Positions 13,688 to 64,000 of a DNA stretch of 64,000 nt are shown here, piece by piece. Location: IMG/VR virus record IMGVR_UViG_3300037502_002304, positions 1 to 64,000 of that record; one strand, given 5' to 3'. Each line of letters begins with the position of its first letter. Position 1 is the first letter of the stretch. Source of the DNA: a virus. The position numbers and the translations under genes are program-made. The notes under the pieces were generated by a model, which was given only the letters and a program-made list of their open reading frames with translations, searched no databases and had not been told where the DNA came from.

Positions 13688-16600
13688 ATGGCAAAGAGAT
13701 ACAAACTTAAAGATTACACTTTACAGAATATTGACCCTAATACAGGTCTGACAGAAAATATAAATGAATCTTTTAGTAACCCTAATTTAAATTTAGCAAA
13801 TTTTAAATTATCTTCTTATGCTAAGTCTCCTGTAGAAGAAGTAGGAAGGTATTTTCAAGATAGTTCTATATATGATGAAGGTATTTCTTACGATATGGCT
13901 ACCTCTCCTATGGGAATAGCTATGCACCGTCATGAAGAGCAACCTTGGTATGCTTCTCTTGGAAGTGCTTTAAATCAAGGTATAGTTGGTGAAGTTGTAG
14001 GAGGTACTTTAGAAGGTGTAGGGTATCTATTAGATATAGAACAATGGCTTAATTTACTTAGGGGAGAAGAACAAGAGTTTGGTAATTGGCTATCTGATAT
14101 AGGTAAAGATATAAGAGAATGGACTCAAGAGACTACACCAGTTTATACTGATCCTACTAAAGAAGGAGAATTTAGTCCAGAAGATTGGACATGGTGGATG
14201 AGTAGTGTATTGCCTTCTACATTTAGTACATTATCATTAATGATCCCTTCGGGGGCAGCTGTAAAAGGATTATCTACATTAGCTAAAACTGCTGGTGTAG
14301 CATCTAATCTAGGTAAAACAGCTAGATGGGCTACTAAAGGCGTAGCACAAGCTTTAATATCTAGACCATTAGAGTCTATGATGGAAGCCTCTCAGGTTAA
14401 AGATGAATTAATGAATACTTTACCTGGAACAGAAATAGGTACTGAAGAAGCTGATAAAATATATAAGAATTATGGTATACAGTTAAATCCTACAAGATTT
14501 GATACTGATGGTAATCCTGTCTATGAAATAGATAATGATACCGCTAATATAATAGCTGCTAAAGCTGCTGCTAATACTTTTAAGGCTAACTTACCAATGG
14601 TAATACAAGATATTCCACAGTATTTATTGTTAAATGCTCCGTTTGGTAAGGCTACTAAAAAACTTACTATAGATTTAGCTAAGAAAACTGGTCAAGATAT
14701 AACTCCTTTAGTAATAGAAAAAGGAGCAGCTATAGCTAAAGATATATTAGGAGAAGGTTTAGAAGAAGGCTATCAATTTATAGTTAGTGAAAGAGCCAGA
14801 GATATGGCCTTAGCTAGAGCTGGATTAGCAGAATATGAAGATTTAGATGAAGCTATTGGTAGATATTTTAAAAATGGTGAGTTCTGGACTTCAGTAGTAG
14901 CAGGAGCAGCTGGTGCTGGTCTTATGCAGACTGTTGGTAGAACAATTAATAACTCTCTAGTTCGTGCAAGAGGTTTAGAATCTGAAGATGAAGCTCGTGC
15001 TAAAGATATAGATTCTTGGGGAGCACAGATGAAATTTATTAGAGAGTTGATGCAAGCTGCTGAAGCTAACAATAATGAAGAATTATTTAGTCATGTATCT
15101 AAATTAGGTATAGCTGATTTGGGAATTAAATTATCTTCTGTAGGTAATCTAGGACATTTTATTGATGCTATAGATAATTTATCTAATGCTTCTGAAGAAG
15201 ATTTACAAAGACTTGGAATATCTGCAGAAGAAGCAGAATATATGGCTAATAATGCTCCTAATATTATAAAAGATTTACAATCTATAGGAGAACTTTATGA
15301 AAAGAATGTAGATAAATATGATGAACCTTTTGCTCAATTGATTACTAGAGAAGAATTCATGAAAAATTATCTCAATGATAAGGATATTGAGTTAGGTTCT
15401 GCATATGAAGAAACTTTTCAAACTATTCCAAATATTTTAAATCTTTCTGAAACAGGTAGAAAATTATTTGAAAATAAACGAATTATTATACCTGCTTTAA
15501 AGAATGCTATAGAAGAAACTAATAATTTTCTGCAAAAAAAGAATACTTCTGACAATGAGCAATTATTTAAAACTCGTTTAGAAGAGTTAAATGCTCTTTT
15601 AGAAGAAGTCACACAAGAAACTAATGAGTTAGAACAAAGTTACACAGAAGGAGAACGTAAGAATGATAGTTCTTATAATCATGATTCTGTTGATTTAACT
15701 GCGGCTCAAAGTCTTTATCTTAAAAAAGCATATAATCAATTACAACTTAAAAACGCATCTGAAATGGTAGAAAAGATGCGTACTACTGAATGGCAACAGG
15801 AAGCTCTTAAAAAGGCTAAGAAGGCTCAAGAAAAAAATGCTAAGAAGGTTGTCGACGCTGCTGAAACTATTGAAGAAGTTAAAGAAGTTAAGAAGAGAGC
15901 TAAAGGTACTGATGTAGAAAAAGCTGTAAATAAGGCTGTTAAAGAGAAAGCTGCAGAACAAGCTGAAACTTCTAATGTAGATGAGACTCCCACTGTAGAA
16001 TCTACTCCACAGAAAGAAGAAGGTGAAGTAGTATTTTCTTCTGAATATGAAGGAGAACCTACTACTGAAACTAAGCAAACTACTTCATTAGATGAAATTA
16101 TAAAATCAGGTAAGCCTGTTACTGCAGAAGAAGCATCTAATATGGAGCAACCTACTGAACAAGAGGAAGCAGAGCCTACTCCTGCTCAAGAAGTAGAACC
16201 TACTCTTCAAGCTACTCCTACTCAACCTACAGAAGAATCTGAGGAAGAAGGAGAAGTTGTGTTTTCTTCTGAATATACACCTACTCAAGAAGAACCTTCT
16301 GAAGAGCAGACAGAACCTACACAAGAAGAAACTACAGCTCCTTCTGTAGAAGAACTTCAAGCTTCTGCTAGACCTAGATCTACTTTTGCTCAGCGTAGGT
16401 ATGAAGGTAAACCTCATTTATTTTCAGATGAATTAGAAGGACTTACAAACGAATTAGATAAATTTGTTCGTAAAAACTCTCCACAAACTATTACTAATGA
16501 AGAATTAAATTTAATTAATGCTTTTGAAGTAACAACTCCTGAAGAGTTAGATTCATGGTTTGATAGTGTAGCAGATTCTGAAAATGCTGCTAATTTAGCT

Positions 16601-19600
16601 AATACAGTCAGAAATTTTTATAGTAATAGGAATAGTATTACTAAGGCTAAAAAGACAGCTAATCAGCCTCAAAATAGCATTAATTACAAGAAAAATGATT
16701 TAGACCAATCTAATAAACCTGGGGCAACTGACCCAATACCTTCTAGTGATAAAAATGTTAATAAAGGAGCTGATATTGTAGTATCTACTACTGAACAAGT
16801 TACAGGAGTTAAAAGTCCTAGGAGGATAAAAGATTATTATATAGATTCTAATGGTAACTTTAGAGAGAGTAAAAAAGAAGAGACTTTCCTTGCTGTAAAT
16901 GCTTATAATTTCATAGATAGATTTGGATTAGATCGTGGAGATTATAAAGCACAGAGTACTGTTTACTTTGAATTAGATACTAATGATCCTTATAGTAATA
17001 AGGGCATAGAAGATACTGGTATTCAAATAGTAGTATATAAGGATGGTAATCCAGATAATACAAGTACTTCTAATAGAAAAATAATAGGTTTAGTTCCTAG
17101 TACTAGAGGTTATTATAAAGATTTGTATGAGTTTAGAAAAATTCTCTTAGAAGATTTACGTTCTAAACAAGATGGTAAGTCTAGGTATGTAAGAAGTAAA
17201 TACACTTCTAAAATTGAAGGATTTCATACTCAATATATCCAGACTAAAGAGGAAAATTCTCCTCTAACTGTTATTAGAGAAGAACATCAAAAAGATCCTA
17301 GATTTGCTAAGCATGGTGGATATATAATAGGAATTACCAAAACTTCTACTAGAGGAATGACTCTGGAAGTTCCTAAAGCTAATGTTAGTATTAATGGTAC
17401 TTTAGAAACTGAATATCAAGGTCAAGTTATAATAATTACTAAGAATCCATTTATTAACGACGCATTATTAATGCGTGGGTTTGTTCGTAGTTTAAAATCT
17501 TATGAGAGTCTTGGTAAGAAACAGGCAGAAAATGGTTATAAGATACGTCAAAGAATTATAGATTTATTCAGAGCATTACCAGATAATCCTACTAAAAATC
17601 AGATTATAGAGCTAAATAATCAAATTAGACAATATCTAATAGGTAATGTTAGATATGAATCTGGAATTTTAATCTTAGATGATTATTTTAAAGTTAGTAT
17701 ACCAGAAATAAGATATGATAGTTTCGACCAGATAAATGCTTGGTTAGATGGTCTTATTTTTAATATTGATAAAAATAAGATTAATTCTCCAATGCCTGCA
17801 CAATATGACTTTGGATTTGGAGCTCAATCTGGTAAATATAATGAATTAATAAGCGACTTCTTAGTACTAACAATGCCTAAAAATAGGTATTTTGAAAATA
17901 CAGCAGCTATTATTTCTAGGAATTTAGTAGATACTACTGATAATAGTCAAGTAAAAGTTTTAAAGAAAGCTGCTTCTAATATAGTATCTAATATTAAGAA
18001 GTCTAATGATATTAAAGAATTGTCCAAAGATACTAATGTTACTGAAGAAACTCCTGTAGTTACTGCAGAACAATTAGAAGTTGGACAATATGTAGAATAT
18101 CAAGGTACTACTTATATAGTAACTAAATTTAATAAGAATGGCACTATTCAACTATTAAATCCTTTAGATGATAGTGAGAAAGGAAAAGTATCTGTCGCTG
18201 CTAAAAACATTAAGCCTACTAAATTTAAAGGTACTATAGTAGAGTATAGAAATATTAAGTATATAGTAACTAGTAAAGGTCAGATTATTTCTTTGTCTTC
18301 TAATAGAGCAATGAAATGGCCTGAAAATCATGGTACTAGAAGACACATTCTAAGTCTAGCTAATGATGCTGAGTCAGGTAGAGTAGAGCCCCTAGCTTCA
18401 AATAAAGTAGACATTAATCCTACTAGTATTAAAACTACTAAGGCAGTTCCTACTAGTACTAAAGATGCAGCTAGACCTACTAAACCTGTTGAAGCTAAAC
18501 CAACTAGTAAAGTTAGGATTGAACGTAAGAAAGACCCATTTGGTAATGCGGGTAAAAATGCTTTGTTAGGTATGTTTAGGAACAGTCAGAACAAACCTAA
18601 AACTAGACTGGCTGATTCTAGCAAACCTTATACTAAGTGGAATAAAGCACAAGAACTTGCTTGGTTTAAAAAGAACTTCCCTCAAGTACCTATTACAGTG
18701 CTAGATAATTTAAAGAATATAGTAGGTAATGGTAGAGAAGCTTGGGGAGCTTTTCATAATGCTTCTGTATATATAGCAGAAAATGCTGCTTCTGGTACAA
18801 CTTATCATGAAGCTTTCCACGTAGTATTTAACTTATTTTTGAATGAAGAACAACGTAATAATATATTAAAAGAATCTAAATTAACTGAAGAAGAATTAGC
18901 TGATAAATTCTCTGATTATGTAGCGTATAAGGATTTAGATAAATCTTTACCTACTAAAGTAAAAGATTTTTTTAGAAAGTTATGGTTAACTATTAAATCA
19001 TTCTTTACTAATAGTATTTCAGGAGTAGACGAATTATTCTTTAGAATAAATACTGGTTTCTACAAGAATGCTACTATAGATTATGGTGCTTTTGGTTCTA
19101 AAGTACTAAGAACTAAAATTGCAGGTTGGTCTTCTGCTTATACTAAAGATATAGTAGAAAGTATCAACATGCACATATTAACTCAGATACTTCCTGATAT
19201 TAGAGAAGCTAATCCAGAATTATCTAATTTAAGTGATGTTGAATTATTAAATGCTATTAACAACAATCCAGAATATGCTCAATATGGTGGTGGAGTATAT
19301 GCAATTTATAATAAAGTATATAATAACTTAGCAGACTTAGCTGAATCAGAATTTGTTCCTGATGATATACGTGAAAATATATTAGATGCTTTACGGTACT
19401 TTTATAATGAAGATGGTAGTCCTGGTAGTTTGATATTAGAAAGTATCAGAGCTTTAGATTATAATAATGGTATTTCTGTAAAAATAGAAGTAGTAGAAAA
19501 TACTATTGAGGATGAATCTGAAGAAACTACTATAGAAGGTGAAGAAGGTTCTCAATTAGAGAACTGGCAGACTACCTATACTGAAAGAAGTCGTAAAAAT

Positions 19601-22600
19601 AATGCTTCTTATAACATTAAGAAATTCCTACGGTATATAAGACTAGAAGACCAAATAAATGCTATAGGATTACCTAAATTTGTAGATTTTAATGAATTAT
19701 ATGATACACTTCTGAATGATTTAGCAGATTCTACAGATTTACAATCTATGGTTACTTATTTAAAGGATTCTCTTCCTTTCCATCCTGAATATCAACAAAT
19801 CATTGATGAGATTGAAAGAAATCCTCAATTTGGTGCAGAATTCTTCAATGCTTTCCATAATACCCATGCTAAGTATGTTAGCATACTTAAAAGAAATAAT
19901 AACTATGTATTAATGGAATCTAACCGTAAGGGAGTTGTTAATAACATTATTTCTAATTGGAGAAATAGTGTATTAGCAAAAGGTTCAGTACTAGTAGATA
20001 AAGGTAAAGGTAATTATGAAGTTAATACTAATAAAGCTGTAGAGATTAAAAAATCTTTTGATGATATTTTAAGAAAGACTGCAATTACCGATGAAGACTT
20101 AATTAAAGTATCTAATTTATTAAAAGAATTAGGTATTGAATTAGACGTTAGAGTTCTTCAATATGCTAAAAATAATAACTATATTAGAAAGATTTTAGAG
20201 GGAGATAAATCTATTTCTAAGATTATTAATAAGTTTGCAGAAGGTAAAAATCCTTTTGATGAAGAAGCTGGGTTAGATTCAGAAATGGCTTCTATTAGAA
20301 CTTTGGCAACATTAGCTAAGAAGGCTACTCCTTCTTTGTATGAGTCTGCATTTAGAAACGTATCGGGTAAAACTGTATATTCACACTTAGTACCTAACTT
20401 TTTGTCTAAGTTAGTAGCTAAATTGACAGATTCTAATAAGCTGATGTCAGTCATAGAGTTTTATGCTCAAGACCCATTATATCTAAATAATCCTATACTA
20501 ATTACTTTAGGTAACTTAGAATCTGATCCTCTAGAATTAAAAAATGCTTTCGAGGTAGCTATAGTTGATGGTATTATAGAAAATGGTAGTAAGGATTATG
20601 CAAGTATGGATGAGACTGACTATAAGGTGTTTACCTTAAATTCTTTCTTTAACAATGGTAATAAAGATTATTCTTACTATCGAGCTAACGTACTATCAGA
20701 TGCTCCTAATATGGTATTATTTAAATTTAAGAGGTTTAAAGAGGATGAAATAGTCAATTACTTATTATCTTTAGCTTCTGCTGAATATAAGCGTATTCAG
20801 GATGTAAAAGAGTATAAAGGAGAGGGTTATAAGAACTATAGTACAGATGCTAATGGTAACACAGAATCTGGCTATCATATAATGCCTATGTTCAATGGTT
20901 TCAAGGGTGACCCTGCTTCTAAACCTGAACAAGCTAAGAAACTTATTAGAGAGTATCTAGATAATAAGATTGAAGATTATAAAAAAGCTCTGATAAATTC
21001 TGGTGTAGTAACTCTTACTGAAGAAGGAACTGTTGACTTTGAGAATTCTAGATTAGATGGAAGAATTTCAAGAGTTAATTTTGATTCTTTCCTGAAAAAC
21101 TTCTATTATAATGACTACCTTATGAGGGCTTCATTCGGGGTATTAACTGTAGGAGATCCAGCTTATTATAAAGCAGATAAAGGCAGTAATAATAAGATGG
21201 TAGATTATACTAAAAGAGCTAAAGAGATTTACTCACCTAAATATGTACCAGATGTAAGTGCCTCTTATACTGATCCTAAAACTGGGGAAGTAATAAAAGT
21301 TGGTGATAGATACAATACTATTTACCTTAAAGATAAAGAAGCTATAGCTCCTTCTTATGACGATATAGAAGCTGCTTTAAATTCTGCAGTTAAATCTGGG
21401 TTTATTACAGAAAATCAGAAGAAAGCTATAGCTACTATGTATAAAGAGGTTAATTATACTGATGCTCAAGCATATACTACTCTTCCATTCTACAGAAAAA
21501 CTATGATTAGTTTAGGTAGATGGACTGATAGACATCAAGAAGCTTATAAGAGATTGATGGAAGAAAAGGGTACTGCTAATGATATTGCATTAGTTATGCA
21601 ACCTCTAAAACCCTTTATGTTTACTCATATATATGATGATAATTTAGGTAGAATAGTACCTGTACAACATAAGAACAGTGAATTTTTGTTACTACCTCAA
21701 TTAGTTAAGAATAATCCAGAGTTGAAAAAACTACATGACTTTATGATTGAAAATAATGTAGGCACGGCCAACTTTGAATCAGCTGTTAAGACTGGCTTAA
21801 CTAAAGTAATGACTCTGGATAACCTTAATGCTGACAATATTATTGAAGTATTTACAGAAGACAGAGGTATACAGCAAGAAGTTCCTGAACACTTTATAGA
21901 TGAAGAAAACTTATTTGGTACTCAGATAAGAAAGCTTATAATGGCTGACTTAGTTGAAGGAGTAGATTATGTAATAACTCCTCATGGTGAAGAAGCTATC
22001 AGTAAAAAGGCTAACGATCTTCGTAGAATGTATGAAGATATTATCACTCAAGACTTGGCTGAAGCTTTCCAAGAAGCTTATTCTGAGCTTACTACTGAAG
22101 ATGGAGACGTAGACTGGTCTAAGATTCATAATATTTTATTAGATGAAGCTAGGAAGCGTGGTAAAGGTGAACAATTTGAAAAAGCTATTACTTATGATCC
22201 AGTTAAGAATAGATTAAATTTACCTTTATTCCATCCTTTATATGCAAATACTACACAGCAACTTCTCACTTCTATATTTAAGAATAGAGTCACTAAACAA
22301 AAGATTGCTGGTGGGTCATTTGTACAAGCTTCTTCTTATGGATTATCTAGAGAATTAAAATTAGTATTTGATAAAGATAATGAAGGTAATTCTAATAGAC
22401 TTCTTTACGCAGAAGTTATGTTACCTGCATGGACTAAGCAGTTCTTTAAAGACTTTGCTAATCCTGATGGTACTATTGATTTTGAAGATGTTAAACAAGC
22501 TGCTCCTGGATTATTAGATATGGTAGGTTATCGTATTCCTACTGAAGATAAATACTCTATGTTACCTCTTAAAGTAGTAGGATTCTTACCTCCTGAATCT

Positions 22601-25045
22601 GGTGGAACTATTATGTTACCTGCTGAAATTACTACTATAGCTGGTTCTGACTTTGATATTGATAAGATGTATGTTATGATGAAAGCTTTTAGAAGAACTG
22701 CTATAGATCGTAATGCTTTCAGAAAAGACCTTAAAGAATATGCTAAAGCTCATAAGGAAGAATTTAAAGATACAGATTTATCTTATGATAACATAAATAT
22801 AGTATTAGACCAAATTATAAATGATGAACAGGTTCTTAATGATGAAGACTTACCTATATATGATTTTTACGTAGAAAATCGTAGGAAATATATCAAATAT
22901 AGTCCAGTTAAATATGATGTAAATAAGTCTTGGAGTGAACAATCTAAAGCTGCTAGAGATAATGCTAAAATTGATATAATTCTCAGTGTTCTACGTAATC
23001 AAGCTACAGTAGGTAGAATACTTAAACCTGGTGGTTTTGAACATCTTAAAAGTCTTGCAGGACTTATGAGATCTAAAACTGGTGCATCTAAAGAAGCATT
23101 AGATGTATATGATGTTTTATCTAATGATGTAATGGCCATTAGAAATATGGTAGGTAAGCAGTTGGTAGGTATAGCTGCTAACCATAATGCTCACCATGCT
23201 TTAAGACAACATACTAAATTAAGTTTTAAAGATCAGATGCAATTCGATGGTATAGTAGCTAGTAGTCTACATAATAAGTCAGCTTTAACTCAATTTGAAG
23301 TTAAAGGTAATAAATTAGTAAAAGTAGATAGTCCTAATAGATTAGTTACTGACAACTTATCAGAATTCTTAGCTGCTGTAGTAGATAATGCTAAAGACCC
23401 TGTATCAGATGCTATAGGATATACACTAGAAACAGCTGACTTAGTATCAACTATAGTAGCTTTAGGATATGACCCTGCTACTGCTTCTGTATTTGTTAAT
23501 CAGCCTATTATTAAGCATATACAGAAAGAAATGTCTAAGAATCCTAATAAATCTGAAAATACTATTATTAATGAAGTAGCTGAATCTGTTGGAGTAGACT
23601 TAGATGCAGTACAAGATGCTCCTAATATTAATACATTAGAAATGTTTAATGCTGTCGGCACTTCTGAAATAAATAATGACCTGCAGAAAAGAGTGTTAAT
23701 GGCTTATTCTAAATATAGAGAAATGGCTAATGCCATGAATAAGTTAGTACAAGCTACTAAAGCAGATACTACTCCTGTAGGGCCTACATTAGCTGATTCA
23801 GAAGTAATGATGGATTCACGTCAAGATATTACTAGTAAGGCTTTCCCAATAGAAGGAGTATCAGATTTTATTAGTGAATCTGAATTCTCTACTAACTTAG
23901 AGGTAGCCTTCTATAAGTATGGTATTTTAGAGCCAACACGATTAGTTTTGAATAGTTTATTCCCATATTATAATAGGCTATTCTCTGAGGTTAAATATGC
24001 TATTAAAAGTAATACTAAGTATAATAGACTATCAGCTAAGCAGATAAATGAAATCAATAATAAGGTATTGACTTTTGTAATGTCAGGGTTTGACTTCTTT
24101 GATATAGAAGAGGGTAGAAAATTAGTTACTAAGTTACCATTAGCTTTGTTCAAATATATTGAAAGTCATCCTGACCTTAAACAAAATGCTTTGTTAAAAC
24201 GATTAAGATATGAAGCTTCTACTGATAGGATTCCAGTAGATAGATTAGTATTTGATAATACTGGTAGTTTTACAGCAGAACAAAGAGAAGATGTTCAGAA
24301 TGCTTGGGAAGATTTATTAAATAGTACTAATGATGAGTACAGAAGATTAGGATTAGCATTAATTAAATATAGCTTCTTTACTTCTGGATTATCATTTAGT
24401 CCTAATGGATTTTCACAATTAATTCCTACAGATGCTTTCTTAACACATGTTAAGGACTCTAAAGGTATGTCACTTAGTGATTATCTATATAATTCTATGG
24501 ATGGAGATTTGTTTAATTCAGAACAATTTAATAGTTTTGTAGAACAGTTTTATCGTAATAATTATAATAATAGAGCATACGTACCTAGAGTAAATGAAGA
24601 TATGTCTAATGTAGACACTGCAGTAAGAGATAATACTACTGGTAAAACAGTAGGTTTTACTGTTAATATGAATGGTAAAAATGATGATTTTATAGTAAGG
24701 ATTAATAATTTCAAAAGAGCAGTTCCTTATATAGCTCATGAAGATTCTAAAGGTAATATAAATTTATATAGGTTAAAACAAGTTAAAGAAGGTATTGCTG
24801 AATATAGATTAGTAAGTAAATTAGGTATTCCTAATCATGTTCAGGAATATAACTTAAATATGAATGTTCCAGAATCTATGTTTGAGTTTAATAATGTAAC
24901 TATTAAGAGTGAGACTAATGTTAAGGTAGAAGAGAGTAATGTTAAAGAACCTGTACAAGGTCAAAATGTAGATGATTTCCTTAAAAGAGAGGGTATTACT
25001 GATAAAGATATAGATAACTTACCAGATTGTATTGGAAAAAAATAA
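13688..25045 (+). CDS. giant virion-packaged DNA-dependent RNA polymerase polyprotein (crAss-type)
   Basis: 3785 aa; GYRIPTEDKYS, AGSDFDIDKMY (catalytic DxDxD, ~22641-22666) and VDNAK motifs; zincin-like HEAFH (~18806-18820); acidic low-complexity linker. Confidence 0.85.
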   Translation: MAKRYKLKDYTLQNIDPNTGLTENINESFSNPNLNLANFKLSSYAKSPVEEVGRYFQDSSIYDEGISYDMATSPMGIAMHRHEEQPWYASLGSALNQGIVGEVVGGTLEGVGYLLDIEQWLNLLRGEEQEFGNWLSDIGKDIREWTQETTPVYTDPTKEGEFSPEDWTWWMSSVLPSTFSTLSLMIPSGAAVKGLSTLAKTAGVASNLGKTARWATKGVAQALISRPLESMMEASQVKDELMNTLPGTEIGTEEADKIYKNYGIQLNPTRFDTDGNPVYEIDNDTANIIAAKAAANTFKANLPMVIQDIPQYLLLNAPFGKATKKLTIDLAKKTGQDITPLVIEKGAAIAKDILGEGLEEGYQFIVSERARDMALARAGLAEYEDLDEAIGRYFKNGEFWTSVVAGAAGAGLMQTVGRTINNSLVRARGLESEDEARAKDIDSWGAQMKFIRELMQAAEANNNEELFSHVSKLGIADLGIKLSSVGNLGHFIDAIDNLSNASEEDLQRLGISAEEAEYMANNAPNIIKDLQSIGELYEKNVDKYDEPFAQLITREEFMKNYLNDKDIELGSAYEETFQTIPNILNLSETGRKLFENKRIIIPALKNAIEETNNFLQKKNTSDNEQLFKTRLEELNALLEEVTQETNELEQSYTEGERKNDSSYNHDSVDLTAAQSLYLKKAYNQLQLKNASEMVEKMRTTEWQQEALKKAKKAQEKNAKKVVDAAETIEEVKEVKKRAKGTDVEKAVNKAVKEKAAEQAETSNVDETPTVESTPQKEEGEVVFSSEYEGEPTTETKQTTSLDEIIKSGKPVTAEEASNMEQPTEQEEAEPTPAQEVEPTLQATPTQPTEESEEEGEVVFSSEYTPTQEEPSEEQTEPTQEETTAPSVEELQASARPRSTFAQRRYEGKPHLFSDELEGLTNELDKFVRKNSPQTITNEELNLINAFEVTTPEELDSWFDSVADSENAANLANTVRNFYSNRNSITKAKKTANQPQNSINYKKNDLDQSNKPGATDPIPSSDKNVNKGADIVVSTTEQVTGVKSPRRIKDYYIDSNGNFRESKKEETFLAVNAYNFIDRFGLDRGDYKAQSTVYFELDTNDPYSNKGIEDTGIQIVVYKDGNPDNTSTSNRKIIGLVPSTRGYYKDLYEFRKILLEDLRSKQDGKSRYVRSKYTSKIEGFHTQYIQTKEENSPLTVIREEHQKDPRFAKHGGYIIGITKTSTRGMTLEVPKANVSINGTLETEYQGQVIIITKNPFINDALLMRGFVRSLKSYESLGKKQAENGYKIRQRIIDLFRALPDNPTKNQIIELNNQIRQYLIGNVRYESGILILDDYFKVSIPEIRYDSFDQINAWLDGLIFNIDKNKINSPMPAQYDFGFGAQSGKYNELISDFLVLTMPKNRYFENTAAIISRNLVDTTDNSQVKVLKKAASNIVSNIKKSNDIKELSKDTNVTEETPVVTAEQLEVGQYVEYQGTTYIVTKFNKNGTIQLLNPLDDSEKGKVSVAAKNIKPTKFKGTIVEYRNIKYIVTSKGQIISLSSNRAMKWPENHGTRRHILSLANDAESGRVEPLASNKVDINPTSIKTTKAVPTSTKDAARPTKPVEAKPTSKVRIERKKDPFGNAGKNALLGMFRNSQNKPKTRLADSSKPYTKWNKAQELAWFKKNFPQVPITVLDNLKNIVGNGREAWGAFHNASVYIAENAASGTTYHEAFHVVFNLFLNEEQRNNILKESKLTEEELADKFSDYVAYKDLDKSLPTKVKDFFRKLWLTIKSFFTNSISGVDELFFRINTGFYKNATIDYGAFGSKVLRTKIAGWSSAYTKDIVESINMHILTQILPDIREANPELSNLSDVELLNAINNNPEYAQYGGGVYAIYNKVYNNLADLAESEFVPDDIRENILDALRYFYNEDGSPGSLILESIRALDYNNGISVKIEVVENTIEDESEETTIEGEEGSQLENWQTTYTERSRKNNASYNIKKFLRYIRLEDQINAIGLPKFVDFNELYDTLLNDLADSTDLQSMVTYLKDSLPFHPEYQQIIDEIERNPQFGAEFFNAFHNTHAKYVSILKRNNNYVLMESNRKGVVNNIISNWRNSVLAKGSVLVDKGKGNYEVNTNKAVEIKKSFDDILRKTAITDEDLIKVSNLLKELGIELDVRVLQYAKNNNYIRKILEGDKSISKIINKFAEGKNPFDEEAGLDSEMASIRTLATLAKKATPSLYESAFRNVSGKTVYSHLVPNFLSKLVAKLTDSNKLMSVIEFYAQDPLYLNNPILITLGNLESDPLELKNAFEVAIVDGIIENGSKDYASMDETDYKVFTLNSFFNNGNKDYSYYRANVLSDAPNMVLFKFKRFKEDEIVNYLLSLASAEYKRIQDVKEYKGEGYKNYSTDANGNTESGYHIMPMFNGFKGDPASKPEQAKKLIREYLDNKIEDYKKALINSGVVTLTEEGTVDFENSRLDGRISRVNFDSFLKNFYYNDYLMRASFGVLTVGDPAYYKADKGSNNKMVDYTKRAKEIYSPKYVPDVSASYTDPKTGEVIKVGDRYNTIYLKDKEAIAPSYDDIEAALNSAVKSGFITENQKKAIATMYKEVNYTDAQAYTTLPFYRKTMISLGRWTDRHQEAYKRLMEEKGTANDIALVMQPLKPFMFTHIYDDNLGRIVPVQHKNSEFLLLPQLVKNNPELKKLHDFMIENNVGTANFESAVKTGLTKVMTLDNLNADNIIEVFTEDRGIQQEVPEHFIDEENLFGTQIRKLIMADLVEGVDYVITPHGEEAISKKANDLRRMYEDIITQDLAEAFQEAYSELTTEDGDVDWSKIHNILLDEARKRGKGEQFEKAITYDPVKNRLNLPLFHPLYANTTQQLLTSIFKNRVTKQKIAGGSFVQASSYGLSRELKLVFDKDNEGNSNRLLYAEVMLPAWTKQFFKDFANPDGTIDFEDVKQAAPGLLDMVGYRIPTEDKYSMLPLKVVGFLPPESGGTIMLPAEITTIAGSDFDIDKMYVMMKAFRRTAIDRNAFRKDLKEYAKAHKEEFKDTDLSYDNINIVLDQIINDEQVLNDEDLPIYDFYVENRRKYIKYSPVKYDVNKSWSEQSKAARDNAKIDIILSVLRNQATVGRILKPGGFEHLKSLAGLMRSKTGASKEALDVYDVLSNDVMAIRNMVGKQLVGIAANHNAHHALRQHTKLSFKDQMQFDGIVASSLHNKSALTQFEVKGNKLVKVDSPNRLVTDNLSEFLAAVVDNAKDPVSDAIGYTLETADLVSTIVALGYDPATASVFVNQPIIKHIQKEMSKNPNKSENTIINEVAESVGVDLDAVQDAPNINTLEMFNAVGTSEINNDLQKRVLMAYSKYREMANAMNKLVQATKADTTPVGPTLADSEVMMDSRQDITSKAFPIEGVSDFISESEFSTNLEVAFYKYGILEPTRLVLNSLFPYYNRLFSEVKYAIKSNTKYNRLSAKQINEINNKVLTFVMSGFDFFDIEEGRKLVTKLPLALFKYIESHPDLKQNALLKRLRYEASTDRIPVDRLVFDNTGSFTAEQREDVQNAWEDLLNSTNDEYRRLGLALIKYSFFTSGLSFSPNGFSQLIPTDAFLTHVKDSKGMSLSDYLYNSMDGDLFNSEQFNSFVEQFYRNNYNNRAYVPRVNEDMSNVDTAVRDNTTGKTVGFTVNMNGKNDDFIVRINNFKRAVPYIAHEDSKGNINLYRLKQVKEGIAEYRLVSKLGIPNHVQEYNLNMNVPESMFEFNNVTIKSETNVKVEESNVKEPVQGQNVDDFLKREGITDKDIDNLPDCIGKK
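16016..16276 (+). repeat. internal peptide repeat EEGEVVFSSEY x2 in an acidic E/P/T/Q linker
   Basis: Copies at 16016-16048 and 16244-16276 have an identical peptide and different synonymous codons. Confidence 0.8.
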
Positions 25046-43127: not shown

Positions 43128-43998
43128 CTGAATCCTCCTCTTCTAAATAATTCTCTGCATTACTATTATATCTCTTATTATATTCATCTACAGAAAAAGC
43201 AATTCCTAAATATTTAGAAATAGCTCTTACATACCTTAAATGAGTTGTAGTACCTCTTTTCATTCCTGGTGCAGTATTAATTTCTAATACACGAGCTTCT
43301 CCTGTATTTGAATTATATGCAATATCTACTGCACCAAATACTAATCCAAGAGCAGGAATAGCAGCTAATGCTACCTCTTTTACTATATCTGGAACTTCTA
43401 TTCCCTTCCTACAAAATGACCAACCTTTTTTAAAGTTTCTAATATATTTAGATTCTTCAGTAATAACTATATTCTTTTCTGCACGTCTACTGCTAGACAT
43501 TTTCTTTTTCTGTACAGCATCTATTACTTCTCCATTAAATACATGAATCCTATACTCAGCATCATTTTCAAAATATTCTGTATATAATTTAGCATCTACT
43601 AACTCATCTTCAGTAGTAGCTAATACAATACCTTTACCTTCTTTACTAGATACTAAAGTTCTACAATAAATTATTTTACCATTTCTAATAGCTTTGGCTG
43701 CATCTTTCTTTTTTAGATAAAAAGTTACATGAGGTACATCACTTAACTCTAAGTTAATAAGAGTCTTAATTTTATTAGAAGCTAATGCTACATTTTCAGG
43801 TCTATTTATAATAATTATATCAGCATTACCACGTCTTAAAGCAGGGGCATCTCCTGCATACCCCCAATTTAATACAACATGTCCAGTTCTTGGGATATAA
43901 TTTCTATTTGGATATATTCTTTTACATTTAAAATGTCTTGAAATAGCCTTAGAAGATAGACTATTCATTTTGTAAGGAAGAACTTTTAAATTTCTCAT
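43120..43998 (-). CDS. ATP-grasp peptide ligase
   Basis: NWG, ASNK, GKGIV, EYRIHVF, IRN, FGAVDI and LEINTAPG motifs. Confidence 0.85.
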   Translation of the reverse strand: MRNLKVLPYKMNSLSSKAISRHFKCKRIYPNRNYIPRTGHVVLNWGYAGDAPALRRGNADIIIINRPENVALASNKIKTLINLELSDVPHVTFYLKKKDAAKAIRNGKIIYCRTLVSSKEGKGIVLATTEDELVDAKLYTEYFENDAEYRIHVFNGEVIDAVQKKKMSSSRRAEKNIVITEESKYIRNFKKGWSFCRKGIEVPDIVKEVALAAIPALGLVFGAVDIAYNSNTGEARVLEINTAPGMKRGTTTHLRYVRAISKYLGIAFSVDEYNKRYNSNAENYLEEEDSDD

Positions 43999-52694: not shown

Positions 52695-52747
52695 AGTTGT
52701 TAGTTTTTATAAAGTTAGACAATAAATTATTTTTCTAAATAGGGTTA

Positions 52748-59998: not shown

Positions 59999-60054
59999 TA
60001 GAATGTTCTTTTAATATTTTAGTTAGTAACATGATTTTATAGATTTAACTGTTC

Positions 60055-60402
60055 CTAACATACTTCTATAAAATTCTTTATTAATATCTCTAATACTTTA
60101 GGTTGTATAACACATTCACCATATTCATTAGCGATTATATAGTTTTCTACTTCTTCCGCTAATTCTTTATAACTTTTAGGCACTGTCTTATATAACCTAT
60201 CTATTTTCTTTTTAGCAGCTTCAATAGCTTCTTCTTCTGTAGGAAATCCTAATGTATAATTATCTAAATTACTACGATAACCAAGAAGAGCTTTTCCACA
60301 TATTGAATCTGCATGAAAACTATTATCTTCAGTACTTTGATATACTGTAATCTCAATATTCCTATATTGTATATCTTTAATCTTTTTTAATTCACTTGTC
60401 AT
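60055..60402 (-). CDS. hypothetical protein
   Basis: 115-aa ORF. Confidence 0.55.
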   Translation of the reverse strand: MTSELKKIKDIQYRNIEITVYQSTEDNSFHADSICGKALLGYRSNLDNYTLGFPTEEEAIEAAKKKIDRLYKTVPKSYKELAEEVENYIIANEYGECVIQPKVLEILIKNFIEVC

Positions 60403-60417
60403 AACTTATAATTTTAA

Positions 60418-60747
60418 TTATCTCTTTATATAATCTTCGGTTAAACCAGCTTCACTAACTTGATTTCCATATTTATCTGCTACAAAAAAACCATAGCAAG
60501 TAAATATTTCTGCATCAAATTTTCCAAAGGCCACATAACCTTCTTTAAGAATTATTTCTTCTTCTGTACCTATATTTACACCAAATACTACATGATCTCA
60601 TACTTTGTATGTAGTATCTCCTATTGTTACGAATGTTGCATCAGAATGTATTTTTGAGTCTTTATGCACATCTTTTTCAGAGGATTCATTTGTTAAAATC
60701 GAAACAAATTTTCTATATGATTGTTCCAATTCTTCTGAAGTTTTCAT
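60418..60747 (-). pseudogene. 109-codon gene broken by one in-frame TGA (60598-60600)
   Basis: MKTSEELEQS...GDTTYKV*DHVVFGVNIG...EDYIKR*; fills the intergenic gap exactly. YKV*D suggests GGA>TGA in a YKVGD motif. Confidence 0.6.
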
Positions 60748-60773
60748 AGTTATAATTTTAATTATATTATAAT

Positions 60774-60805
60774 AAAAAGTGCCAGTCTCTCCTGGCAGTC
60801 ACACC
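60774..60805 (-). terminator. stem-loop plus T-run (terminator or small RNA element)
   Basis: - strand GGTGTGAC-TGCCAG-GAGAGA-CTGGCA-CTTTTT. Confidence 0.5.
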
Positions 60806-60852
60806 TATAGAGTTTTTAAACGATAATCATTTTATTATAGAAATATAAATTA

Positions 60853-61053
60853 TTATTCGTTTAAATATTCATCAATTTCATGTGATTCTACATAACCTTC
60901 TGAAATTTCTTTTAATCTGTGTTCAGGTACAAAATAAGCTGAAGAGCCTACTTTAGATAATAGAGGTTCATCATTAATGAGAATACACTCATCAAACCAT
61001 TCTTTATCCATTAATATCTGAGAAAATGGCCATTCTACAATTACATATTTCAT
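60853..61053 (-). CDS. hypothetical protein
   Basis: 66 aa; YVIVEWP.SQ.LM..EWF and SAYFVP. Confidence 0.6.
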   Translation of the reverse strand: MKYVIVEWPFSQILMDKEWFDECILINDEPLLSKVGSSAYFVPEHRLKEISEGYVESHEIDEYLNE

Positions 61054-61070
61054 AATAATTTCATTATTTA

Positions 61071-61367
61071 TTATTGTTGAGGTTGAATATACTTTTTATA
61101 AATAGTATTTGCTATTTCATCACAATCAAGTTCTCTATCTTGGGGATAGTAATTTTCTAATATTATATCTTGTATGTCTTTGATAATTGCATATTTATCT
61201 AAAAACTTAAAGTTTTGATTATGTTCTTTTACTAAATTTTCAGCACTTTCTATATTAGTACATGTACCAATTACCTTTCCTTCTGCAGTTCTAATTTCAT
61301 GTCTAAGTTTGTCTAAAGGACATACAAACCATTTTTTAGCATAAACGTTTATATTATTTGCTTCCAT
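61071..61367 (-). CDS. hypothetical protein
   Basis: 98-aa ORF. Confidence 0.55.
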   Translation of the reverse strand: MEANNINVYAKKWFVCPLDKLRHEIRTAEGKVIGTCTNIESAENLVKEHNQNFKFLDKYAIIKDIQDIILENYYPQDRELDCDEIANTIYKKYIQPQQ

Positions 61368-61444
61368 TGTTATAAAGTTTTATTTAGATATGGTTAATAA
61401 ATTAAATAGTAGCAGTACTATAATAGTACCACTACTAAAGATAA

Positions 61445-61831
61445 TTAAATTATTTCCCAACTCTTCACTTTGCCCCCTAAATGTTCGGCAATCTCTTGAA
61501 GATGTGGTTCAATCTTTTCTTTGAATGAAGCATGTTTCCAATTCTGAGCAAGTTTACCCATCGGTGATCTTAACCACCTATGTAATCCTTCCTCAGGTGG
61601 AACAGGTCTTTCTAAAGCATGTTTAATGAAATGATAACTTAAAGTAATGACCTGAGTAGCTTCTTTATACTCTGGTCTTACTACTGCCTTCATTGGTTCA
61701 GTAATAGTCATCTTCTCTTCTTTAGAGAAAGAATTTTTGACATTAATTTTGGCTTCTTTATAAACACCCTGGCGTACCAAGTACTTGCCTCTGCTAACAG
61801 TCAGCAAGATTTTTGAAGTAGAATCAATCAT
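61445..61831 (-). CDS. hypothetical protein
   Basis: 128-aa ORF. Confidence 0.6.
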   Translation of the reverse strand: MIDSTSKILLTVSRGKYLVRQGVYKEAKINVKNSFSKEEKMTITEPMKAVVRPEYKEATQVITLSYHFIKHALERPVPPEEGLHRWLRSPMGKLAQNWKHASFKEKIEPHLQEIAEHLGGKVKSWEII

Positions 61832-61866
61832 TATAATAATATAGGTTATATAATAATATAAATTTA

Positions 61867-62310
61867 TTATTTGTTTTGGTTTATAGCTAAATTCTTAGGA
61901 TTCCAGTAGGTAATACATACTGGATAATATAACATACTCATATCTGTACCAATCTCAGCAACTACTTTATTAGTAACTGCATCAGTTATCTCAAGTATAT
62001 CATAACAAGCTTGTATACTGAAAGCATCTAATATGCTTGGTTTCATTTGGCATATTACTTTCTGTGGTGGAAATGTATTAGACACCTTCTCTTCTGTTAT
62101 CTCTAGCTCTCCTAAGAATGACCTTTGTCCATCATCAGGGTTTTCTACTGCTTCATAAGTAATGCCATCTAATATAAACCTGACAACATTTACTTCAACA
62201 GTTTTATCACGAGTATCTTTTATAGTCTTTTTAGAAATATCAAACCCTGACAACATATGCTCCCCTACTAAGTCTTTCAAAGTAATATTATCTCTTATCG
62301 GGTATTCCAT
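61867..62310 (-). CDS. hypothetical phage protein
   Basis: 147 aa; FILDGITYEAVENPDDG.RS motif. Confidence 0.6.
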   Translation of the reverse strand: MEYPIRDNITLKDLVGEHMLSGFDISKKTIKDTRDKTVEVNVVRFILDGITYEAVENPDDGQRSFLGELEITEEKVSNTFPPQKVICQMKPSILDAFSIQACYDILEITDAVTNKVVAEIGTDMSMLYYPVCITYWNPKNLAINQNK

Positions 62311-62340
62311 AGTTACAAATGATTATTTTGGTTAATGAAT

Positions 62341-62377
62341 AAAAGACTCCTTACCCTAATGGTTAGAGTAAGAAGTC
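62341..62377 (-). terminator. intrinsic terminator after 62392..62946
   Basis: - strand GACTTCTTACTCTAACC...GGGTAAGGAGTC then TTTT. Confidence 0.55.
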
Positions 62378-62391
62378 CATATTATATTATC

Positions 62392-62946
62392 CTATGCTTC
62401 TCCAGAGATGAGGGTTTCAAGGCTTGCAGATGGGGTGGATTGTTTAGCAGCCTCTGCAGCTTCTTTCTTCACATCCACTCTCTCAGTTACTTCAAGAGTA
62501 TCGTGTCCTTTCTTCTGGAACTCATCGTGGCTACAAATTTGGGTAGTCCTATAGATAGGTTTACCATTATTCAGAAGGATATTACCATTTCTATCAACTC
62601 TTGGTTGTTGTCCATCAAACCAAGCTTTAAGGCTATCCTTCACCCTAATAGTTCCAGGAATAGTAGCTCCTTTTGGAAGGTCTTGAGCCACTTTTGCAGA
62701 AGCATTCTGTATAGCTCTCATATATACTTCTGTAGAGCTCCATCCTAACAACTGAGCACCCAAATCAGATACTTCAGTATTAGAGCTAGGAAGTCCTGTT
62801 ACTTTAGCCATGAAGTACAGATTTACATACTCTTCATTAGAGGTCTGTACTTTATCAATAAGCACTAATTTACCTTCATCCAGAGCTTTTTTAATCTCTG
62901 CATTGGCTAACAGTTCTTCATTGGTTAAATTCCTGTTCAAATCCAT
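62392..62946 (-). CDS. crAss-like early protein, putative ssDNA-binding protein
   Basis: C-terminal G.ILLNNGKPIYRTT...D motif, as I recall from crAss-type proteins annotated as SSB; own promoter-like motif and terminator. Confidence 0.45.
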   Translation of the reverse strand: MDLNRNLTNEELLANAEIKKALDEGKLVLIDKVQTSNEEYVNLYFMAKVTGLPSSNTEVSDLGAQLLGWSSTEVYMRAIQNASAKVAQDLPKGATIPGTIRVKDSLKAWFDGQQPRVDRNGNILLNNGKPIYRTTQICSHDEFQKKGHDTLEVTERVDVKKEAAEAAKQSTPSASLETLISGEA

Positions 62947-63010
62947 AATTTATGATTTTAAAGTTAGACAATATATTAATTTAATTTAAGCACTGTGCAG
63001 TGCCATAGTT

Positions 63011-63048
63011 TCGAAAGGGATGCAACGCAGCGAGTCCCATTTTACTAT
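63011..63048 (-). promoter_or_regulatory. 38-nt conserved motif, copy 1 (candidate phage-RNAP promoter)
   Basis: + strand TCGAAAGGGATGCAACGCAGCGAGTCCCATTTTACTAT; 30/38 identical to 63785..63822. Confidence 0.55.
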
Positions 63049-63093
63049 AGATTATAGGTTATAGGATTATTGATTAAGGGACTATTGAGTTTT

Positions 63094-63130
63094 GGGCTAT
63101 GGGCTCTGGGCTTGGGGGGTTGCGGGGCGG
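63094..63130 (+). other. G-quadruplex-forming motif
   Basis: GGG-CTAT-GGG-CTCT-GGG-CTT-GGGGGG-TTGC-GGGG-C-GG. Confidence 0.55.
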
Positions 63131-63148
63131 CGTAGTAGTGGAAATAAA

Positions 63149-63175
63149 GAGCAGTTTAACCACATGCTCAGGTGG
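63149..63175 (-). ncRNA. compact H-type pseudoknot candidate
   Basis: - strand CCAC-CT-GAGCA-T-GTGG-TTAAAC-TGCTC: S1 CCAC/GTGG, S2 GAGCA/TGCTC. Confidence 0.5.
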
Positions 63176-63180
63176 GATGT

Positions 63181-63429
63181 TTAACCTTTAGGCCACACTC
63201 TACGTCTATGTGGCCTGTAATTACGATTAGTACAAGCATAATATTGCCCCTGTACTATCGATTCTTTAGCAGCCTGATTAATTTTTTCACAAACAATCAT
63301 AGCTGACCTACTGTAACCTACCCTCGTCCCTGAATATATCGGACTAGATAGGGTATTTTTTCTATCCCCAAGTTCACATAATATATTATGAACTTTAGGG
63401 TTTGTGGAATATATTAACTTACCCCTCAT
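63181..63429 (-). CDS. small basic hypothetical protein (start revised to MRGKLIY)
   Basis: The ATG at 63429 overlaps the end of an upstream 29-aa ORF. Confidence 0.5.
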   Translation of the reverse strand: MRGKLIYSTNPKVHNILCELGDRKNTLSSPIYSGTRVGYSRSAMIVCEKINQAAKESIVQGQYYACTNRNYRPHRRRVWPKG

Positions 63430-63508
63430 GATTCTTCCTTTTAACATTATTATACCATACAATAATAATTATACTCCATACTGCTAATGTTGCTAAGAAT
63501 GTTATCAT
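63419..63508 (-). CDS. 29-aa single-TM peptide
   Basis: MITFLATLAVWSIIIIVWYNNVKRKNHEG*, translated by hand. Confidence 0.45.
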   Translation of the reverse strand: MITFLATLAVWSIIIIVWYNNVKRKNHEG

Positions 63509-63519
63509 AGTACTATGTT

Positions 63520-63738
63520 TTAATGATTAATAAATCTCAATCGTACTCCAACTTTACCATTACCATAACGATACATCCCATCAGTTGGTATATTTAGGTC
63601 ATCGCATTTCTTCAGGAATAGATAGGCATCAGATTCATTATTAAAACCTTCTATAGTATCCCATACTGCCCTAAAGTTTAACTTTATATTAGGCTCTAAT
63701 TGTCTACCATACTCCATTAATTCCTCTATAATAGTCAT
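63520..63738 (-). CDS. hypothetical protein
   Basis: 72-aa ORF. Confidence 0.55.
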   Translation of the reverse strand: MTIIEELMEYGRQLEPNIKLNFRAVWDTIEGFNNESDAYLFLKKCDDLNIPTDGMYRYGNGKVGVRLRFINH

Positions 63739-63784
63739 GATAATATATTTTAATGGTTAATATTAAGAGGTACACATCAGGATT

Positions 63785-63822
63785 TAGAAAGGGAAGCGTA
63801 GCTACGAGTCGCATTTTACTAT
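63785..63822 (-). promoter_or_regulatory. 38-nt conserved motif, copy 2 (candidate phage-RNAP promoter)
   Basis: + strand TAGAAAGGGAAGCGTAGCTACGAGTCGCATTTTACTAT, ~47 nt upstream of the 63738 start. Confidence 0.55.
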
Positions 63823-63885
63823 TGAGTATAGATTATAGTATTCTAGGAAAGGAAAGGCAATAGCTAATAACTACTGCCTATTATC

Positions 63886-63999
63886 CTAATAAGTATCTAC
63901 TATAGAAGCATCCTCAGGGTCAAATTCTATGTAGTCATCAGGTATTTTAGGAACATCTAATCCCCTGCGTTTAGCCTCTTTTGATATCCTCTGTATCCA
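63886..63999 (-). CDS. 3' end of a hypothetical protein truncated by the window edge
   Basis: ...WIQRISKEAKRRGLDVPKIPDDYIEFDPEDASIVDTY*. Confidence 0.45.
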   Translation of the reverse strand, partial: WIQRISKEAKRRGLDVPKIPDDYIEFDPEDASIVDTY

Positions 64000-64000
64000 C

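Follow-up and report, generated by a model that had tools for sequence, protein, structure and literature searches.

The phage and its array of repeats

Toward the right end of the window analyzed here, that is, bases 1-64000 of the linear 90,011-nucleotide (nt) IMG/VR virus record IMGVR_UViG_3300037502_002304 (CheckV completeness estimate 82%), two copies of an intergenic repeat precede small minus-strand genes; they belong to a longer element, arrayed at the head of the early arm, that probably serves as a promoter. We call the genome of this phage G000, and coordinates beyond the window continue its numbering on the same record. The genes fall into three blocks: a plus-strand block (296-28921) that includes a 3785-aa open reading frame (ORF), a minus-strand block (29000-66362), and a second plus-strand block (67065-89758) with an amidase, the large terminase and the portal. 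The early/replication arm is read leftwards from a divergence point at about 66.4 kb, and the array occupies its first kilobases. This is an environmental crAss-like phage, since the best named match of its portal is Cellulophaga phage phi14:2 (38.7% identical) and the 3785-aa ORF matches gp66 of that phage; the portal is also matched by 152 crAss-like phage records. The stretch 60000-64000 gave no blastn match in the phage collection. The long ORF, which the original prediction had taken for the RNA polymerase (RNAP) of the phage, is indeed a virion RNAP:

13688-25045, plus strand: 3785-aa ORF, gp66-type two-barrel virion RNAP (PDB 6VR4 chain A, E 2.5e-44)

The match to 6VR4, the solved virion RNAP gp66 of phi14:2, spans residues 2470-3715, a DFDID motif stands at residue 2988, and no other giant virion protein is present here. 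By analogy with gp66, the RNAP part of the product would cover roughly residues 1600-3785.

The two repeats noticed first were proposed to be an early promoter for this enzyme. Exact matches to GAAAGGGAWGCNNNGCWNCGAGTCSCATTTTACTAT, 36 nt each, stand at 63013-63048 and 63787-63822 on the plus strand of the window; with up to three mismatches allowed there are still two matches in the window, the whole record holds the same two and no others, and none of 100 dinucleotide shuffles reached two (mean 0.00). As had been described, both are intergenic and upstream of minus-strand genes, their ends lying 64 and 46 nt from the ATGs of 62392-62946 and 63520-63738, and TAGATTATAG comes after each on the plus strand. 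That there are only two copies is true of this strict pattern; a looser, longer element has six more, at 64.48-66.40 kb. These were first found by inspecting all minus-strand intergenic regions, where shared boxes stand before nearly every small gene between 62946 and 66362. The full set comprises eight copies of an element of about 75 nt and one decayed copy, most of them beyond the window edge:

62975-63054, minus strand: copy c1 (nhmmer E 1.3e-15), core TCCCTTTCGAAACTATG at 63020-63004, invariant G at 63004; holds the first-noticed repeat, 63011-63048
63753-63828, minus strand: copy c2 (nhmmer E 2.2e-15), core at 63794-63778, invariant G at 63778; holds the first-noticed repeat, 63785-63822
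about 64140-64194, minus strand: decayed copy, box A kept, core lost; missed by nhmmer up to E 10
64484-64561, minus strand: copy c4, invariant G at 64514
64813-64888, minus strand: copy c5, invariant G at 64839
65289-65365, minus strand: copy c6b, invariant G at 65316
65523-65603, minus strand: copy c6a, invariant G at 65552, which is the first base of a tRNA-like RNA (65552-65367)
65998-66063, minus strand: copy c7, short form, invariant G at 66021
66334-66400, minus strand: copy c8, short form and first of the arm, invariant G at 66363

All eight lie on the minus strand within 62,975-66,400, in the first 3.4 kb of the arm; all are intergenic and each heads a small ORF or the tRNA-like RNA, so that the position upstream of a gene, pointed out for the first two, is kept by every copy in the rest of the genome. 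The nhmmer profile was built from these eight copies, and its recovery of them (E 4.9e-12 to 8.5e-17, the range spanned by c4, c5, c6b, c6a, c7 and c8) is therefore expected; elsewhere in the 90,011 nt it found nothing better than E 3.7. Read-based variant tables gave no difference inside c1 or c2 among the 40 of 503 differences listed, from which we draw no conclusion.

Read 5' to 3' on the minus strand, the eight-copy alignment consists of box A (AATrrTAAAATG), a g-rACTC box, a spacer of 10-11 nt, and aCATCCyTTT...CTG. Its core is TCC-n-T-...-TG (TCC-N12-TG): the T-C-C and the T-G are among the columns invariant in the eight copies, at fixed spacing, and counting from the T of TCC the last G comes at base 17 in 8/8. 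In the short forms, c7 and c8, the stretch from box A to core is 8 nt shorter. Downstream, conservation continues for about 25 nt beyond the invariant G, and in six copies ATGTTTAAC(TTTAAAT or CAATTAAAT) follows this G and is itself followed by a start codon.

The core in relatives, the candidate start and the cassettes

Relatives were sought among 35 related records, G001 and 34 others. G001, a close complete relative of 96,668 nt, was found via the catalytic part of the virion RNAP (54% identical in the best segment, 61% in the alignment). Its early arm begins at 77336 on the plus strand, and the head of that arm carries three matches to TCCYTTYCKAAANNNTG (77725, 78110 and 78740, all on the plus strand; reversed control 0), named G001a, G001b and G001c here. 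Their core reads TCCyyTyCTAAAnnnTG, and an ACTC or ACCTC box ends 11 nt before TCC in 3/3, where the register of G001a needs ACTCC; read as TACTC, its spacer is 12 nt. The first copy also carries a TGTTTAACCA leader box. Downstream of two of the copies lie counterparts of the G000 genes 63181-63447 and 62392-62946, the latter counterpart being 78815-79444; in these two pairs 13/17 and 14/17 core positions are identical, as against 17/40, 18/40, 17/40 and 10/40 in the flanks. Across the 11 copies of both genomes TCC, T5, T16 and G17 are kept in at least 10. In the 34 other records, 11 scattered core matches stand against 12 in the reversed control, that is, background; their virion RNAPs are at most 41% identical, except in G002, of the G001 lineage, and in the 15.7-kb fragment G009 (55%), neither of which has a core match. 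Because G001 has three matches while the 34 others stay at the level of the reversed control, the candidate signal is specific to this lineage, which fits a polymerase-matched signal and plain divergence equally. At the early-arm heads of G003 and G014 neither the motif nor an obvious repeat was seen by eye, no de novo motif search having been made.

Wider searches were made as well. In viral contigs, TAAAATGGGN{5,18}ATCCYTN{10,14}CTGATG hit seven loci, dropped as chance (a similar string common to three of them runs antisense within an L009 ORF), and ATCCYTN12CTGATGKTTAAC had no match. The latter pattern gave 32 matches in metagenome contigs and 27 in genome contigs, all single, with full-profile E of at least 0.029, and these too were taken as chance. 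The 184-aa protein encoded at 62392-62946 gave no locus in viral or genome contigs, whether the query was the single sequence or an alignment of 16, and searches with the large terminase (TerL) and portal reached only contigs below 18 kb, short of the early arm. One IMG/VR relative found through TerL, L018, has at least four tandem iteron-like GCACCCATATATCACA copies at 281-427, upstream of late genes.

Where the RNA might start is suggested by structure. In c6a the invariant G opens the acceptor-like stem of the tRNA-like RNA. In c1 a hairpin, GGCACTG..CAGTGCT, extends from it (6-bp stem, minimum free energy (MFE) -6.2 kcal/mol), and in G001a, G001b and G001c hairpins of 3, 4 and 9 bp do so, the last at -10.1 kcal/mol. 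The MFE values are those of the RNA taken from the invariant G, and base 1 is paired in c1 and in the three G001 copies. Five copies in all have a 5' hairpin or acceptor-like stem at or within 1 nt of this G. Because structured RNAs begin exactly at one conserved base, as expected of a transcription start, we somewhat favor the invariant G as +1. A 5'-terminal stem-loop is a known mRNA stabiliser. Relative to this candidate start, TCC occupies -16 to -14, ACTC lies near -32 to -28, and box A near -40, or about -32 in c7 and c8.

In six copies the candidate transcript would begin G-AUG (e.g. 64514-64511 and 66021-66018), with the AUG at +2 to +4. This start-proximal AUG is in frame with the ORF in 4/6 copies, giving N-termini MFNFK or M(F/V)NQL, and is out of frame or soon stopped in c2 and c6b. 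Leaderless-type initiation might be allowed in the six copies; given c2 and c6b, translation probably begins at the ATGs that come next, 25-58 nt from +1. A further repeat stands at the start of the 184-aa gene:

62956-62982, plus strand: repeat D8 (minus strand TTGTCTAACTTTAAAAT), just before the ATG of the 184-aa gene; also at 43651 and 52707

It resembles the leader box TGTTTAACTTTAAAT common to c5, c6b and c7. On the minus strand, TTGTCTAACTTTAwAA (43651-43677, 52707-52733 and 62956-62982) lies 11-15 nt ahead of three minus-strand start codons, a distance taken directly for two genes (52694 and 62946), and may be a shared translation-start region. Two other readings were considered for box D, at which c6b is identical in sequence to c5 and c7: a host -7 box was rejected, as the box is only 11-15 nt from start codons with no TTTG at 19-21 nt, and a coding N-terminus is unlikely, since the upstream ATG of c2 and c6b is out of frame or soon meets a stop.

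The element stands within a repeated architecture of terminator, element and one cargo gene:

62344-62378, minus strand: terminator-like hairpin (16 pairs) after the c1-headed 184-aa gene
62392-62946, minus strand: 184-aa ORF downstream of c1, no PHROG family
63520-63738, minus strand: 72-aa predicted ORF downstream of c2
63855-63879, minus strand: terminator-like hairpin (11 pairs) with T-rich tail TTCCTTTCCT, ending the cassette upstream of c2
63886-64000, minus strand: 3' part, in the window, of the ORF 63886-64113, which crosses the window edge
64219-64200, 64598-64575, 64941-64920, 65675-65654 and 66124-66106, minus strand: terminator-like hairpins beyond the window

In L010, whose positions 1855-1879 correspond to window 63855-63879, terminator-like sites number 13 between 300 and 5100, versus 3.1 +/- 1.6 in shuffles. 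On the minus strand such hairpins precede five of the eight copies (c2, c4, c5, c6a and c7) and the decayed copy. Because a terminator stands upstream, each cassette gene would need a promoter of its own, and nothing but the element is conserved from each terminator to its gene. The nine small proteins of the array are mutually unrelated (best pairwise E 1.1); therefore the likeness of the elements is not that of whole duplicated cassettes. Scanned against PHROGs, the nine array ORFs and seven neighbors gave 12 without a family, three in unnamed families and one marginal HNH (E 0.0084), and the only named families among the other genes scanned were those of the amidase (the first plus-strand gene), the large terminase and the portal. 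For the 184-aa ORF the protein collection holds 16 matching proteins; the top homologue, 98% identical and with no source listed, may be the record's own or a near-identical copy.

The cargo of c6a is an RNA, not an ORF. The tRNA-like RNA (65552-65367, minus strand) matches the Rfam tRNA family below threshold (26.7 bits vs a gathering score of 29); no Rfam family reached its gathering score in L010 1-5200, and nothing was found on the element. This gene has no terminator after it, c6b beginning right at the RNA 3' end. Its divergence in related contigs is just 2-3%, as against 7-13% for the neighboring genes, and G001 has no blastn match to it. Just upstream of c1, where other cassettes have their terminator, lies a C-rich tract, CCGCCCCGCAACCCCCCAAGCCCAGAGCCCATAGCCC on the minus strand (63078-63130; G-runs on the plus strand), which stands out in an otherwise very AT-rich genome. 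A second unit is repeated in runs, which lie upstream of three copies (c1, c2 and c6a) and immediately 5' to the ATG of 63886-64113:

63049-63068, 63829-63842, 64115-64140 and 65604-65640, minus strand: runs of the unit TCTATAAT

In one related contig a 35-nt slip falls at these runs (joint 2152 to 2118), and none were seen in G001; possible readings are a binding site and a repeat prone to slippage.

Exchange of cassettes was followed in DNA contigs of four metagenome runs from four studies (landfill, fertiliser, compost and digester), which cover most of the stretch at 80-99% likeness; no run of RNA was listed as containing it. Among the 19 joints listed, 18 of the 38 ends are within the eight 80-nt copies, which take up 640 of 3601 nt (binomial P 2.7e-5), and five joints run from one copy to another. 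In three runs the homology to G000 stops at L010 981, where c1 has its 3' edge, and is followed by different sequence with its own ATG. These joints are suggestive of element copies acting as breakpoints for cassette shuffling between related phages; we keep to that grade because joints called at 80% likeness can come from repeats, and they often come from repeats or other organisms, which tells against this part of our reading.

Two observations lie outside the array itself. Between the divergent arms is a 702-nt gap (66363-67064), of which 427 nt are 74.7% identical to G001 77148-77567, far above the identity of the flanking genes. The gaps of both genomes hold C runs (CCCCCCC...ATATATA...CCCCCCC), and the region could be a structured RNA, an origin or a packaging region. 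The large terminase ORF (71067-74366, plus strand) has 1099 aa, of which the terminase profile covers residues 540-1091 only; its N-terminal half has weak matches to other terminase and primase profiles, relatives align over the full length, and it is probably a fused or extended form.

Which polymerase might read the element

Among Bacteroidota the sigma-A promoter consensus is TTTG at -33 and TAnnTTTG at -7; this sigma factor is not known to use TATAAT-type -10 boxes. Promoters of the host type, searched as AGTCWATWAGAA-N8-16-TTTG-N19-21-TAnnWTT, are present elsewhere in the genome:

9278-9331, plus strand: tripartite host-type promoter, AGTCWATWAGAA-N-TTTG-N20-TAnnWTT, before the late gene at 9358
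74367, plus strand: tripartite host-type promoter before gene 74439 (portal)
78309, plus strand: tripartite host-type promoter before gene 78383
84097, plus strand: tripartite host-type promoter before gene 84169

The pattern has these four matches, 4/4 on the plus strand before late genes, with none in the reversed control, and further TTTG-N20-TAnnTTT sites stand before the genes at 2931, 67615, 35611 and 49613. In the early array even the relaxed TTTG/TAnnTTT pattern gives no match, and the reported absence of TAnnTTTG is borne out on the minus strand over 59946-65985. Pairs of sigma-70-type hexamers are not enriched there either (17 vs 15.7 +/- 4.4 in shuffles), and a sigma-54 reading of the TGGCAC in c1 and G001b was rejected, the GG-to-GC spacing being wrong. 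The element is thus very probably not read as a sigma-A promoter. Because it is unlike Bacteroidota sigma-A promoters while the late genes carry such promoters, its specificity would be non-host. We regard it as likely that the element is a promoter of some kind. For its reader, the virion RNAP is the most economical candidate, because the phage carries the enzyme, its best-studied relative, phi14:2, uses it early, and host-type promoters are reserved for later genes; we give this assignment an even chance.

The explanation that we prefer runs as follows. The eight functional-looking copies and the decayed one would form an array of early promoter-and-leader elements, each heading a self-contained cassette made, as a rule, of a terminator-like hairpin, the element, and a small ORF or tRNA-like RNA. 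Transcription would begin at the invariant G, so that six copies would yield G-AUGUUUAAC...UUAAAU, a shared A/U-rich leader. The reader would be a non-host enzyme, most likely the injected gp66-type virion RNAP, acting right after DNA entry, and recognition would be by sequence, possibly on the purine-rich template strand, and not via an extruded hairpin like that of phage N4. The repeats may also serve as breakpoints for shuffling of cassettes between related phages. Taken whole, this account of an early, non-host promoter-and-leader array read by a gp66-type virion RNAP seems to us evenly poised between right and wrong. More tentatively still, TCC-N12-TG with rACTC 11 nt upstream might be the long-sought promoter of a crAss-type two-barrel virion RNAP. 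The enzyme would read its sequence, probably on the purine-rich template strand where the DNA is locally melted, signal and polymerase would co-evolve in each lineage, and initiation would be exact enough for structured RNAs to arise with mature 5' ends, unprocessed: the tRNA-like RNA would require no RNase P step, and mRNAs would be capped by a 5'-terminal hairpin.

Several points weigh against this account. Promoter activity, the +1 at the G and the identity of the polymerase are inferred from sequence. The 8-nt variation in the distance from box A to core (c7, c8) does not sit easily with one rigid protein contact. G001 does not keep box A, which in G000 is the strongest box; the first-copy pair, c8 and G001a, shares 8/17 core positions; and the core that does cross genomes (TCC-n-T...TG) is low in information and is carried by one related lineage with three copies. 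An RNA end at the G could come from processing (e.g. by RNase P) and not from initiation. Hairpin-plus-T terminators are host-type RNAP signals, though phage RNAPs stop there too. The early region of phi14:2 has no match to the eight-copy profile (best E 0.14) and, by inspection, no shared motif. For phi14:2, the only crAss-like phage with mapped early 5' ends, the authors report no common upstream motif, and gp66 transcribes single-stranded DNA well and double-stranded DNA poorly in vitro (preprint 10.1101/2020.03.07.982082).

Some of these points would suit a promoter read by the host RNAP, through an alternative sigma factor or through sigma-A with a host or virion factor bound to box A or ACTC. 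Besides the weak activity of gp66 on double-stranded templates and the classical hairpin-plus-T ends of the cassettes, box A has TGnTAAAAT-like strings, which we take to resemble the extended -10 element of the sigma-70 type. Yet the array has no TTTG/TAnnTTTG pair while near-consensus pairs stand at late genes, sigma-70-type sites are at the shuffled level given above, and it is box A that is lost in G001 and the core next to the G that is kept. We hold a host reader to be unlikely.

Alternatively, the element might act after or apart from initiation, as a 5' leader, as a processing site at which a long early transcript is cut at the G, or as an operator of an early-gene repressor on the imperfect inverted repeat AAAaTGGGA...TCCCtTT. 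Box A and core do make up a partial inverted repeat, whose helix 18-21/36-39 pairs in 83.9% of cells, as compared with 39-61% in slid controls of the full two-helix structure. However, a structure drawn from the very sequences it is scored on should outdo its slid controls, the helix has no change on both sides, and RNAalifold returned 0 consensus pairs on the copy alignment. Conservation for about 25 nt past the G would suit such a role, and RNase P could release the tRNA-like RNA at that base, but terminators upstream of 5/8 copies leave no promoter for a long precursor. Such a role is, in our judgement, distinctly improbable. That the repeats are recombination scars or mobile repeat units with no part in expression is far less probable: joint ends of related contigs do cluster in the copies, but so would not the 8/8 strand bias, the strict intergenic position before a gene or RNA, the fixed spacing of invariant bases, and the retention of the core in G001 where flanks are 25-45% identical be accounted for.

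The remaining proposal, central to the original prediction, was that the differences between the first two repeats mark a covarying mini-hairpin with a 3-nt loop. Both strings are present as described, and the T-A to A-T exchange between them is real:

63021-63029, plus strand: TGC-AAC-GCA in c1, within the variable 10-11-nt spacer between rACTC box and TCC core
63795-63803, plus strand: AGC-GTA-GCT in c2, overlapping a 10-nt palindrome, CGTAGCTACG, that gives a competing register

The hairpin fails as a conserved feature because the extra copies do not keep the pairing. In the eight-copy alignment, pair 27-35 holds the sole compensatory change, in c2, pair 28-34 does not vary among copies, and pair 29-33, the third, is formed in two of the three copies with letters and gapped in the other five; the covariation score was reached by 90/500 shuffles. 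A two-pair remnant, TG..CA (AG..CT in c2), is kept in the six long copies, and c7 and c8 are without the segment. DNA folds of the template strand are weak (MFE -0.7 to -5.6 kcal/mol; z +0.17 to -2.74) and inconsistent from copy to copy, that of c2 being CGT/ACG with a 4-nt loop, unlike the proposed pairing, and the zero pairs predicted by RNAalifold tell against the hairpin too. In G001 the core recurs three times, and the copies before counterpart genes have CGCTCCGCC and ACTGATAGC in the spacer position, with no 3-bp hairpin. The mini-hairpin is in all likelihood irrelevant. An N4-like promoter, in which the virion RNAP reads an extruded hairpin with a 3-bp stem and 3-nt loop on the template strand, is thus largely refuted already and scarcely credible, for although c1 and c2 can each form the hairpin and the long copies keep its remnant, the segment would be centered near -21 of the candidate +1, versus -11 in N4, and the enzyme is of the two-barrel class. 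What stands of the earlier claim is the promoter-like, non-host character of the repeats and the identity of the RNAP; the N4-like hairpin does not.

Comparison with known systems

The early promoters P1-P3 of N4 are, according to PMC4496689, DNA hairpins in which a stem of at most 7 bp closes a 3-nt loop and a GC-rich heptamer is centered at -11, the start lying about 8 nt beyond the hairpin. Gyrase-driven supercoiling extrudes them, SSB stabilises them, and the injected virion RNAP that reads them is a T7-like single-subunit enzyme. As in N4, few copies of a phage-specific, non-host signal stand before the first-expressed genes and a giant RNAP is carried in the virion; unlike N4, there is no conserved hairpin here (the 3-bp stem occurs in two copies only), and the polymerase is gp66-type and two-barrel, not T7-like. 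The hairpin model of N4 should not be carried over to this polymerase family. A fainter likeness concerns phiKZ, whose non-virion two-barrel RNAP has late promoters with the consensus (-3)-TATG-(+1), as given in PMC7618050. There too the signal is short and spans the start site, T being at -1 and G at +1, and c1 and c6a read TATG to the candidate +1; the other six G000 copies, in contrast, have CTG at -2 to +1, the three G001 copies have TTG or CTG, and the element extends at least 16 nt upstream. This likeness may be chance.

A closer parallel is Thermus phage P23-45, where, according to PMC10770324, AT-rich pre-early promoters are assigned to gp96, a two-barrel virion RNAP fused to the tape measure, on the basis of ONT-cappable-seq start sites and ChIP-seq, and the pre-early units end at a special 26-nt motif. 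In both systems the first genes are preceded by a motif of sequence and not by a hairpin, and the polymerase is of the two-barrel class. In the same source, the P23-45 motif is limited to phages that carry the virion RNAP; the present element occurs in G001 and is at background in the 34 other relatives. Unlike those of P23-45, the sites here come from sequence alone, no sequence likeness between the two was seen, and the units end at ordinary hairpin-plus-T structures.

The nearest named phage is phi14:2, which shares with G000 the genome plan, the gp66-type RNAP and tripartite host-type late promoters. The preprint describes its early genes as transcribed by gp66, largely resistant to rifampicin, and its middle and late promoters as tripartite and host-type (10.1101/2020.03.07.982082). 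The clear shared early element of G000 sets the two apart, none being reported in the preprint or found by us in phi14:2. A full-text literature search returned no published description of a promoter for this polymerase family. For the recognition signal of the injected RNAP of crAss-like phages, this genome offers a compact and testable template set: eight natural variants, two short forms among them, a candidate +1, and three G001 copies (two before counterpart genes, with a polymerase about 60% identical).

The cassettes themselves recall the PeSL units of T4-type phages, which, as described by Arbiol et al. (2010, PMC2839356), combine an intergenic terminator stem-loop, an early promoter and a translation start region, stand before ORFans in a plastic region, are sites of modular shuffling, and have promoters that match the host sigma-70 consensus. 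Likewise, an intergenic terminator and a putative early promoter are repeated here before unrelated ORFs, almost none of which has a named PHROG family, and the exchange at the 3' edge of c1 looks like PeSL cassette exchange as described there (PMC2839356). The element of G000, on the other hand, matches no host-type promoter, and its shuffling is read from contig joints only. Overall, the array would add to the cases in which phage genes are shuffled as promoter-terminator cassettes.

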